A DNA stretch of 64,000 bases from Anaerolineae bacterium. GTDB lineage: Bacteria; Chloroflexota; Anaerolineae; B4-G1; SLSP01. The position numbers and the translations under genes are program-made. Under the pieces are notes generated by a model. It had not been told where the DNA came from. It worked only from the letters and a program-made list of their open reading frames with translations, and did no database searches. This document shows, piece by piece, positions 25,845 to 30,125 of the stretch. Every line of letters begins with the position of its first letter. Positions within the stretch are counted from its first letter, which is position 1. Where the stretch lies: positions 77,382 to 141,381 of the forward strand of contig DAOOGN010000001.1 in NCBI GenBank assembly GCA_035415725.1, written 5' to 3'.

Positions 25845-27191
25845 ATGAACACTCAATTGTCGCCCGTGGAGATCGATCAGGAACAGGCCCGGCGTGTCCA
25901 AATGGCTCGGGCGGTCATTCGAGCTTCGATGGCAGGTGCGGCTATATTCTTGGTGGTCTTCGTGAGTATGGTGATCGTTGCGCCGAATTTCGAGAGTCGC
26001 TATGGGGGGGTGGCAGCTCTGGTGTTCTTAGTCTTCAGCGGCATCAGTTTGGGGCTGATCCGTCGTCAGCGACTGAGTCTCGCCATCACGATCTATCTCA
26101 CAGCGTTGATTGCTAGCTTGACGGTCGCTGTCTATCTTCTTGGCGGCGTCACCGGCCCGATGGCGATGGGTTTTGTCATGGCGGTGGTCATTGTCGGACT
26201 GATCGGCGAGCCTAAGTCGTTACGCTATGCCTCCATCATCGTTGGAGTCATTTATCTGACGTTGGCGATTTTGGAAGCTACCCAGGTATTGCACCCGGCG
26301 CCTGTCCCTGAGGTTGCCCGCTGGTGGATAGAAATCGTATTCTTCCTGGCTATATTTGTCGTGACGGCTTTGGCAGTCGGGGCCTTCGTCAACCAGACCG
26401 GGCGTGCCTTTGCGGCGGAGCGGCAACGTAGCCTGGAACTGGTTCAGGCGACGCGCCAGGCTGAACAGTTGGCAATAGCCGAGCGTGAATCGCATGAATG
26501 GGAGAGCCGCGCCGCCGTGCATCTGCGCGAGACCGTCGCCGGCTATGTCGATTACCTGTCGCGGGTGGCCGCCGGAGACTACACGGCGCGCGTGGATGTT
26601 GGCGTGTTGGATGAGGCGGTGGAGGGCGACCGTGAACTACACGCTTTGGGTGAGTACCTCAATACAACCGTGGATGCACTGGTGGCGGCGCTGACCCAGG
26701 CTCAGGAAACACAACGTCGCTATACGGAACAGGCGTGGGAAACTTTCGTGGAGTCGGGGCGCGTGCAGCCTGGATTTGCTTATCGGCAAAATCAGATCAC
26801 CCCGGAGGTGGAGTGGTTGCCGCAGATGGCGCAGGCCGTGGATAGCGGAACGCCGGTGGTTGAGGACAAAGGCGCGGCTGTGCCGCTGGTCATCAATCGG
26901 CAGGTGGTGGGGGCCCTCGGCGGGGAGCATCCCGATGGTCGGCCATGGACCGCAGAGGAATTAGCTTTGATTGAGGATATCACCGGACAACTCGCGCAAA
27001 CGATCGAGAGCCTGCGGCTGTTCGACGACGTACAGCGGCGCGCGGCCCGCGAACAGATTTCCGCGCAGGTGACGGCGCGGATGCGCGAATCGCTGGATAT
27101 GGAGACCGTGCTCAGGACCGCAGTCGCTGAGATGCGCCGTTCCCTGGGTTTAGACAAGATCGCCATCCACCTGGGAGTATCTCAAAAATGA
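25845..27191 (+). CDS. Small membrane member of the family: 4-6 TM helices, coiled coil, helical 'AAGDYTARVDV' segment, GAF-like C-terminal part with tail; paralog of the gene at 44790
   Basis: ATG at 25845 is preceded by GAGGGA. An alternative GTG start at 25824 overlaps the upstream stop as GTGA. The TM region reads AIFLVVFVSMVIVAP...LVFLVFSGISLGLI...ITIYLTALIASLTVAVYLL. The C-terminus reads QRRAAREQISAQVTARMRESLDMETVLRTAVAEMRRSLGLDKIAIHLG. Confidence 0.8.
   Translation: MNTQLSPVEIDQEQARRVQMARAVIRASMAGAAIFLVVFVSMVIVAPNFESRYGGVAALVFLVFSGISLGLIRRQRLSLAITIYLTALIASLTVAVYLLGGVTGPMAMGFVMAVVIVGLIGEPKSLRYASIIVGVIYLTLAILEATQVLHPAPVPEVARWWIEIVFFLAIFVVTALAVGAFVNQTGRAFAAERQRSLELVQATRQAEQLAIAERESHEWESRAAVHLRETVAGYVDYLSRVAAGDYTARVDVGVLDEAVEGDRELHALGEYLNTTVDALVAALTQAQETQRRYTEQAWETFVESGRVQPGFAYRQNQITPEVEWLPQMAQAVDSGTPVVEDKGAAVPLVINRQVVGALGGEHPDGRPWTAEELALIEDITGQLAQTIESLRLFDDVQRRAAREQISAQVTARMRESLDMETVLRTAVAEMRRSLGLDKIAIHLGVSQK
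27033..27138 (+). repeat. 106-bp perfect direct repeat, copy A (coding, C-terminal tail of the 25845 gene)
   Basis: Identical base for base to 29913-30018 (offset exactly 2880 bp). The flanking sequence diverges on both sides. Confidence 0.9.

Positions 27192-30125: not shown

Follow-up and report, generated by a model that had tools for sequence, protein, structure and literature searches.

Short segments at the end of a gene are replaced from nearby homologous copies in cassette-type antigenic variation, as at pilE/pilS and vlsE, and concerted evolution through gene conversion is familiar from bacterial duplicates such as tufA and tufB. Gene conversion between bacterial paralogues is well known more generally (26 genes; PMC6053082), and RF1 and RF2 are duplicates of the same category (PMC4530459). 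In several mammalian lineages, independent conversions between the tandem receptors TLR1 and TLR6 homogenise the C-terminal signalling side of the proteins, whereas their N-terminal, ligand-binding side evolves apart (PMC2077338). The present locus is a stretch of 64,000 nucleotides from an uncultured Anaerolineae bacterium (contig DAOOGN010000001.1, positions 77,382 to 141,381 of the forward strand; hereafter the window), in which two adjoining sensor genes, open reading frame (ORF) A and ORF B, carry an identical 106-bp tract in their C-terminal tails. Comparison with orthologous loci indicates that this tract is very probably the product of a short, recent, non-reciprocal gene conversion, in which about 106 bp of the B tail were copied into the homologous site of the A tail.

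Such an event is a new instance of a known phenomenon, gene conversion between paralogues, and its closest conceptual parallel is TLR1/TLR6, where tandem paralogous receptors are likewise involved and where the converted region groups by genome while the remainder groups by orthology (PMC2077338). The TLR conversions, however, are eukaryotic, cover tracts of ∼900 bp and are found in every species examined (PMC2077338), whereas those of the array to which A and B belong are bacterial, span ∼50–120 bp and are sporadic; moreover, the module converted in the array has no known partner or function. With the bacterial duplicates (tufA/tufB, RF1/RF2 and the 26 genes) the locus shares non-reciprocal homologous exchange and paralogues that are more alike than orthologues, but those cases mostly concern whole genes or long tracts in highly similar pairs, while the A/B patch is short and lies in genes that are otherwise ∼48 per cent identical in DNA and unlike in domain architecture. 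Cassette systems and shufflons employ silent donors, or site-specific recombinases acting on inverted sites, and here both partners are complete, co-oriented genes. The case is notable for the shortness of its tract, for how different its partner genes are and for the series of states that can be seen (ancestral, patch conversion and crossover deletion).

The identical tract in ORF A and ORF B

ORF A (25845–27191, forward strand) is annotated in public records as a protein of 448 amino acids, although the longest possible ORF begins at a GTG at 25824, and in it membrane helices at the N-terminus are followed by a long helix, then a reduced GAF-like domain and finally the tail; its orthologues form about 50 clusters in metagenome-assembled genomes (MAGs) of Anaerolineae. 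ORF B (27240–30125, forward strand) encodes 961 amino acids with a periplasmic-binding-protein-like sensor, a GAF domain, a reduced GAF and a tail as delineated with Pfam, and its exact protein is present on 11 contigs. GAF exceeds the Pfam gathering threshold in both bodies, at 94.5 bits in ORF B and at 33.2 bits in ORF A, where the match is partial (profile positions 91–133). Positions 27033–27138 in the tail of A and 29913–30018 in the tail of B agree at 106 of 106 bases on the same strand, at an offset of 2880, and a mismatch directly at each end makes the run maximal. The in-register flanks, taken over 200 bases, are 48 per cent identical. A first-pass annotation of the sequence had reported this perfect identity, its spacing, its diverged flanks and its position in the tails of adjacent family members, and each of these observations holds. 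When the 104 mismatches among 306 in-register sites were permuted, none of 200,000 permutations produced a run of at least 106, and the longest permuted run was 39.

Self-BLAST of the window, a check proposed in the same annotation, together with a repeat search, returned the A/B pair as the sole repeat of any length at 100 per cent identity; the second-best match to the tract in the window has 75.6 per cent identity, and there is neither a third copy nor an inverted copy within the 64 kb. These properties bear on the idea that the repeat belongs to a programmed diversification system, be it the template and variable repeats of a diversity-generating retroelement (DGR), a shufflon-like site-specific system or silent cassettes of the pilE/pilS kind. 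A repeat of ∼100 bp at the 3′ end of a gene is what DGR variable regions look like, and shufflons likewise swap C-terminal tails. Yet all 19 adenines of the tract are identical in the two copies, both copies sit in complete, co-oriented genes with no inverted copies, and a Pfam scan of three ORFs beyond the array (61679–62797, 62171–62845 and 63318–63950) gave no reverse transcriptase or recombinase. A DGR, a shufflon and a cassette system were accordingly rejected for this window, barring a reverse transcriptase or recombinase that is encoded elsewhere in the genome and acts in trans, and we give programmed diversification a practically negligible probability.

Both copies of the tract are in frame, and each encodes QRRAAREQISAQVTARMRESLDMETVLRTAVAEMR; in ORF A the converted tract comprises these codons plus one base. 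With methionine left out, 32 of 32 codons are the same in A and B, against a background of 38.7 per cent (1397 of 3608 same-amino-acid sites when every other pair of tails in the window is counted), an outcome with a probability of ∼6e-14 under that background. Over the whole A/B tail pair, 37 of the 41 sites with identical amino acids also use the identical codon. The sharp bounding of the tract by diverged flanks and the homogenisation of synonymous sites inside it are both marks by which interlocus gene conversion is recognised.

Identity at synonymous sites could in principle also reflect selection on the nucleotides themselves, if the tract were a functional RNA structure, a protein-binding site or a regulatory element within coding sequence. 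It is true that no DNA is better conserved among the paralogues than the opening ∼105 nt of their tails (54–87 per cent identity, as against 33–69 per cent in the remaining tail). The tract sequence, however, is common to only 2 of ∼19 tails, and most differences between species in B-type tracts are third-position changes (15 of 16 in orthologous locus L013 and 14 of 18 in L068), which argues that selection acts on the protein; judging from these substitutions, the tail is kept under protein-level selection. A structured RNA element was rejected, since the predicted fold of the tract is no better than that of shuffled sequences (z = -0.09) and Rfam returned no match to it with an E value below 0.9. 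An explanation by nucleotide-level selection is thus extremely improbable.

A mosaic tail and the direction of transfer

Orthologous loci were taken from 55 Anaerolineae and Thermoflexales genomes and from exact-protein look-ups, and the 5′ flank, the tract and the 3′ flank were each compared with loci L003–L013, L068 and L070, with a sliding comparison in addition. Where conversion has occurred between paralogues, the overwritten segment might be expected to resemble the donor family while the sequence on either side continues to follow the orthologues, and this is the pattern found in ORF A. Its 5′ flank (27003–27032, forward strand; IESLRLFDDV) is of A type, with 83–97 per cent identity to A orthologues and ∼53 per cent to B-type tails. 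The tract itself (27033–27138, forward strand) is only 65–72 per cent identical to the native A tails of orthologues but 82–85 per cent identical to B-type tails elsewhere. Beyond it, the distal end of the tail (27139–27188, forward strand; RSLGLDKIAIHLGVSQK) is again native A-type: across 27139–27182 it has 66–70 per cent identity to three of four native A tails (L005, L068 and L070) and 50 per cent to that of L008, compared with 36–48 per cent to B-type tails. The ending 'LGLDKI.IHLG' is common to most A orthologues, including those that are only 34 per cent identical, and the native A ending is therefore ancestral. In ORF A, then, the tract groups with the paralogue and both flanks group with the orthologues.

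The tail of ORF B tells a simpler story, being colinear with the B orthologue of L068 at 80–86 per cent identity in the 5′ flank, the tract (29913–30018, forward strand) and the 3′ flank alike. The exchange was hence non-reciprocal, with the B tail left unchanged, and from the mosaic structure of the A tail and the colinearity of the B tail it follows that B was the donor and A the recipient. Recent gene conversion had been put forward in the first-pass annotation, and it is borne out by synonymous homogenisation, by orthologue-like flanks around a paralogue-like tract in A and by an unaltered B, the last two having come from the comparison with orthologous loci that it recommended.

Transfer in the opposite direction, from A to B, or the overwriting of both tails by a third donor outside the window, deserves consideration given that tails often move between genes in this family and that a B-type tail is retained in only 4 of 11 B orthologues. 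What speaks against either is the colinearity of the B tail with L068 through both tract flanks, the dissimilarity of the A tract to native A tails (which occur even in the A orthologues of 34 per cent identity) and the lack of a third copy in the 64-kb window; both variants are highly improbable.

The conversion from B into A finds its unconverted counterpart in L068 and L069, where an A gene with its native tail is followed by a B gene with a B-type tail. These two loci, compared over 21 kb, have 99.78 per cent identity and are set apart by an 18-nt indel, and the lengths of their B orthologues, 964 and 958 amino acids, suggest that the indel lies in B. In L070 the B orthologue is split at 11396–14303 into ORFs of 468 and 506 amino acids, possibly by a frameshift or as a pseudogene, and a B-type tail is found on the gene next after it. 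The 90 per cent cluster of ORF A contains, besides one variant with a local frameshift, the chimeric form only, and its next relatives are 74–79 per cent identical.

Exchange among the tails of the array

The A/B tract is not the only sign of exchange. The tail of gene D (31807–33534) contains at 33310–33430, on the forward strand, a patch of raised identity to 36717–36837, on the same strand, in the tail of gene E (34737–36953). Identity within this older patch is 83–97 per cent per 30 nt, its flanks are at 50–67 per cent, and its position in the tail is the same as that of the A/B tract. The pair had been noticed earlier as 33330–33430 and 36740–36840 with about 90 per cent identity; once the offset is corrected to 3407, 33330–33430 against 36737–36837 gives 89.1 per cent. 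In the synonymous comparison of paralogue pairs that had likewise been recommended, D and E use identical codons at 29 of 44 amino-acid-identical sites (p = 2e-4 against the 38.7 per cent background), beside the 32 of 32 of the A/B tract. The accompanying suggestion that tails are better conserved as nucleotides than as protein does not amount to a general signal, since only A/B and D/E lie clearly above the background.

Comparable patches occur in other genomes, where pairs of paralogous tails have exact runs in common, of 80 nt (L031), 48 nt (L028) and 46 nt (L022), all three at the same tail position, and of 35 nt (L026); the runs always lie in the proximal half of the tail, and the distal ends are gene-specific. 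Among 407 tails from the 55 genomes, exact runs of at least 30 nt were found in 15 of 1778 within-genome pairs and in 57 of 80,843 between-genome pairs, even though the latter include true orthologues (odds ratio 12, p = 3e-11).

Exchange of this kind should also leave genes whose body and tail have different affinities, and the body and the tail of each gene were typed separately against the genes of the window. The two agree in all 32 orthologues of the four upstream genes (those ending at 15805, 18657, 21605 and 25827), but they disagree in 19 of 31 orthologues of genes A–F, about nine of these discordances being robust and the others ambiguous, with tail matches below 70 per cent identity. 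At the protein level, A orthologues carry at least five tail types. That discordance is seen in A–F but not in the upstream genes fits the homology available in each set, as estimated from sequence: the tails of genes B–G have a mean identity of 69 per cent and share exact runs of up to 26 nt, and the four upstream tails have a mean identity of 50 per cent and runs of 12 nt or less.

Several orthologous loci appear to have gone further and lost genes. In L003, L004 and L013 there is no B body, and the A orthologue ends in a B-type tail of full length; in L004 the sequence 3′ of this tail follows the B-to-C junction of L068 colinearly. Such an arrangement is the product that would be expected of a single crossover between the A tail and the B tail, with deletion of the B body. 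Chimeras in L007 (2–3448) and L070 (3–2831) join the body of the window gene ending at 13374 to the distal tail of the gene ending at 18657, and the genes between these two are absent, as expected of a tail crossover. Within the window, the gene at 40433–44797 (1454 amino acids) has a complete internal tail at residues 785–842, followed by a second reduced GAF and tail, which suggests the fusion of two array units through loss of a stop codon. Taken with the D/E patch, the patches in other genomes, the within-genome excess of runs and the body–tail discordance, these chimeras substantiate the proposal that recombination among tails is ongoing. A further proposal, that it shuffles input domains, survives in a restricted sense only, in that tail crossovers join another body to a tail and delete or fuse genes.

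The tails serve as recombination substrates, because they are the best-conserved DNA among co-oriented genes. The tails of A and B are direct repeats 2880 bp apart, and short-patch conversion would account for the copying of ∼106 bp from B to A and, earlier, for the D/E patch, while single crossovers would delete or fuse genes. In the unconverted pair of L068 the A and B tails are 59 per cent identical, and their longest common runs are 14 nt (GCAGCGGCGCGCCG) at tail-model positions 29–42 and 10 nt at positions 102–111; at the 3′ edge of the tract region, L070 has 'ATGCGCC' as a 7-nt match. The tract of the window starts at tail-model position 30 and ends on 'ATGCGCC', and the crossover switch in L013 is likewise at position 30, from which it follows that junctions fall on the few microhomologies available. 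The exchange might have proceeded by RecA-type recombination, with a heteroduplex limited by homology, or by a replication template switch between nearby direct repeats that was seeded by the 14-nt and 7–10-nt microhomologies; a switch independent of RecA is rated equally possible.

Several considerations weigh against the reading of a recent B-to-A conversion, to which the ambiguous discordances given above also belong. An identity of ∼60 per cent before conversion is low for RecA-mediated exchange, and the molecular route is to that extent uncertain. Neither the 90 per cent cluster nor exact look-ups, which led to identical loci only, yielded a closely related strain whose ORF A is unconverted, and for this reason the conversion can neither be dated nor be seen as a polymorphism. 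Judging by contig names, all of the assemblies appear to be short-read metagenomes, and a de Bruijn assembler could merge copies that differ at few sites, so that 'perfect' identity might be 'nearly perfect' identity.

The last of these points leads to the objection, already raised in the first-pass annotation, that the identity was made by the assembler, either from a collapsed or chimeric repeat or by the bubble-popping of two similar copies. A repeat of 106 bp is shorter than a typical read, which limits threading errors even if bubble-popping inside the repeat could still occur, and the junctions agree with the orthologues in that both A flanks are A-like and the B flanks B-like, whereas mis-threading predicts an A body with a B distal tail. 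The chimeric A protein, beside the same neighbours each time, occurs on 11 contigs drawn from NCBI, JGI and ENA, and imperfect patches of a similar kind in other genomes show that the phenomenon has a biological origin. In the 22.9 kb that were compared, the locus is identical to contig JAKPOD010000106.1 of NCBI assembly GCA_029548045.1, and the JGI locus, L001, differs elsewhere by a small compensating pair of indels and is therefore a separate assembly. The objection is thus weakened, if not fully closed given the seemingly short-read origin of every assembly, and we consider an artefact very unlikely. The indel pair itself, the sole JGI difference, lies in ORF A at 25977–25987 of the window (8738–8748 of L001), where +1 and -1 indels of 1 nt, 12 nt apart, shift the frame of ∼4 codons; on sequence grounds it may be either strain variation or a sequencing error.

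The tail module and the sensor array

Structure prediction helps to describe what is being exchanged. An AlphaFold2 model of the last 340 amino acids of ORF B has a mean confidence (predicted local distance difference test, pLDDT) of 84 and proceeds from the GAF domain through a 52-residue helix, the reduced GAF-like domain, a 46-residue helix and a 16-residue helix to an end of low confidence, in which the last ∼20 residues include a terminal segment with no assigned strand. The tract encodes the distal 19 residues of the 46-residue helix and most of the next helix. The modelled fold matches tandem-GAF proteins (PDE2A, PDE6, CyaB2 and phytochromes), to which it is also similar in its long 'signalling helices', but their helix connects to a catalytic output domain, while in ORF B it passes into a tail of ∼45 residues, after which the protein ends.

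Isolated tails stay below the gathering threshold of the Pfam GAF families (PF01590, PF13185 and PF13492), aligning at profile positions 1–26 and 2–40 with E values of about 0.1. With a hidden Markov model of the tail, 19 C-terminal tails were detected in the window, and a tail profile has matches in 13,495 protein clusters at E ≤1e-3. The best hits are giant multi-GAF proteins with 6–15 matches each, so that the tail motif corresponds to the junction between GAF domains, and the cluster count mostly reflects such internal GAF–GAF junctions. The C-terminal form, with the top match ending no more than 50 residues from the C-terminus, accounts for 60 of the 150 best hits, and internal tail matches in proteins of the window run on into a full GAF domain. 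The tail is best described as a linker helix with the beginning of a GAF domain, truncated behind the first strand; it takes in the last part of the long helix coming out of the final GAF-like domain, a further helix and a short end segment, and its resemblance in sequence to the first ∼45 residues of a GAF domain is drawn from the internal junctions of multi-GAF paralogues.

The domain that precedes the tail (29640–29880 in ORF B, with an equivalent in all paralogues) has a reduced GAF-like fold of ∼4–5 strands and one helix, and it matches only the C-terminal half of Pfam GAF profiles; it apparently has no N-terminal helix and strand, the very elements that the tail resembles. Completion of the reduced GAF by the tail in cis was considered and is not supported by the ORF B model, whose terminal segment has no strand, and an AlphaFold2 model of ORF A made with 35 orthologues has a pLDDT of 30–60 in its C-terminal half and is uninformative on the packing of the tail against the reduced GAF.

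ORF A and ORF B belong to a sensor array of about 20 paralogous genes that run in one direction on the forward strand (1686–53642, from ORFs and Pfam hits) and nearly fill the window. The array proteins combine a sensor module (periplasmic-binding-protein-like, MASE11, dCache, HAMP or PAS) with at least one GAF domain, the reduced GAF-like domain and the conserved tail, whose motif is 'ARL..(D/E)TQRRAARE..I..R.R..LD.E.VL..A..E....L......V.L', and none of the ∼20 has a recognisable output domain. A histidine kinase of HAMP-GAF-HisKA-HATPase architecture (19–1689, forward strand) stands at the upstream edge, and a hybrid histidine kinase of 2413 amino acids with several GAFs, HisKA, HATPase and two receiver domains (53679–60920, forward strand) at the downstream edge; genes of the ABC substrate-binding type are interspersed at 33603–34727 and 48052–49137. 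No description of the array or its tail was found in the literature.

Stop and start codons of neighbouring array genes often overlap, and the base composition of the coding strand is skewed over the 64 kb (G 31.5 per cent, C 26.6 per cent). The intergenic region between A and B contains a hairpin (27195–27218) that has no conserved counterpart in L068 or L070. An AT-rich intergenic repeat of ∼190 nt occurs in two copies of 79 per cent identity, one at 33500–33690 after gene D and upstream of an ABC substrate-binding gene and the other at 61486–61680 after the hybrid kinase; it carries motifs such as CCACGGATTT and ATCCGTGGCAAAAA, and neither copy has an Rfam match.

For a conversion of so short a tract between such dissimilar genes, this bacterial locus is unusually clean: public genomes reveal donor and recipient, the two breakpoints, the ancestral state before conversion and, as the alternative outcome, a crossover deletion. 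It shows that a shared C-terminal module can be a recombination handle in a large tandem sensor family. Such a handle homogenises one end of the protein while the sensing ends diversify, and it yields new combinations of body and tail, fusions and deletions. The locus also draws attention to a widespread and uncharacterised architecture, in which a truncated-GAF tail takes the place of an output domain at the end of a sensor. One possibility, which we think unlikely, is that the tail is a dedicated, exchangeable docking module that pairs in trans with the reduced GAF-like domain of another member or with the hybrid kinase at the downstream edge. If this were true, ∼20 output-less sensors would feed a common kinase, conversions and crossovers of tails would rewire the coupling of input to output, and the 60-kb array would represent a combinatorial sensor system of a new kind, evolving by tail exchange.

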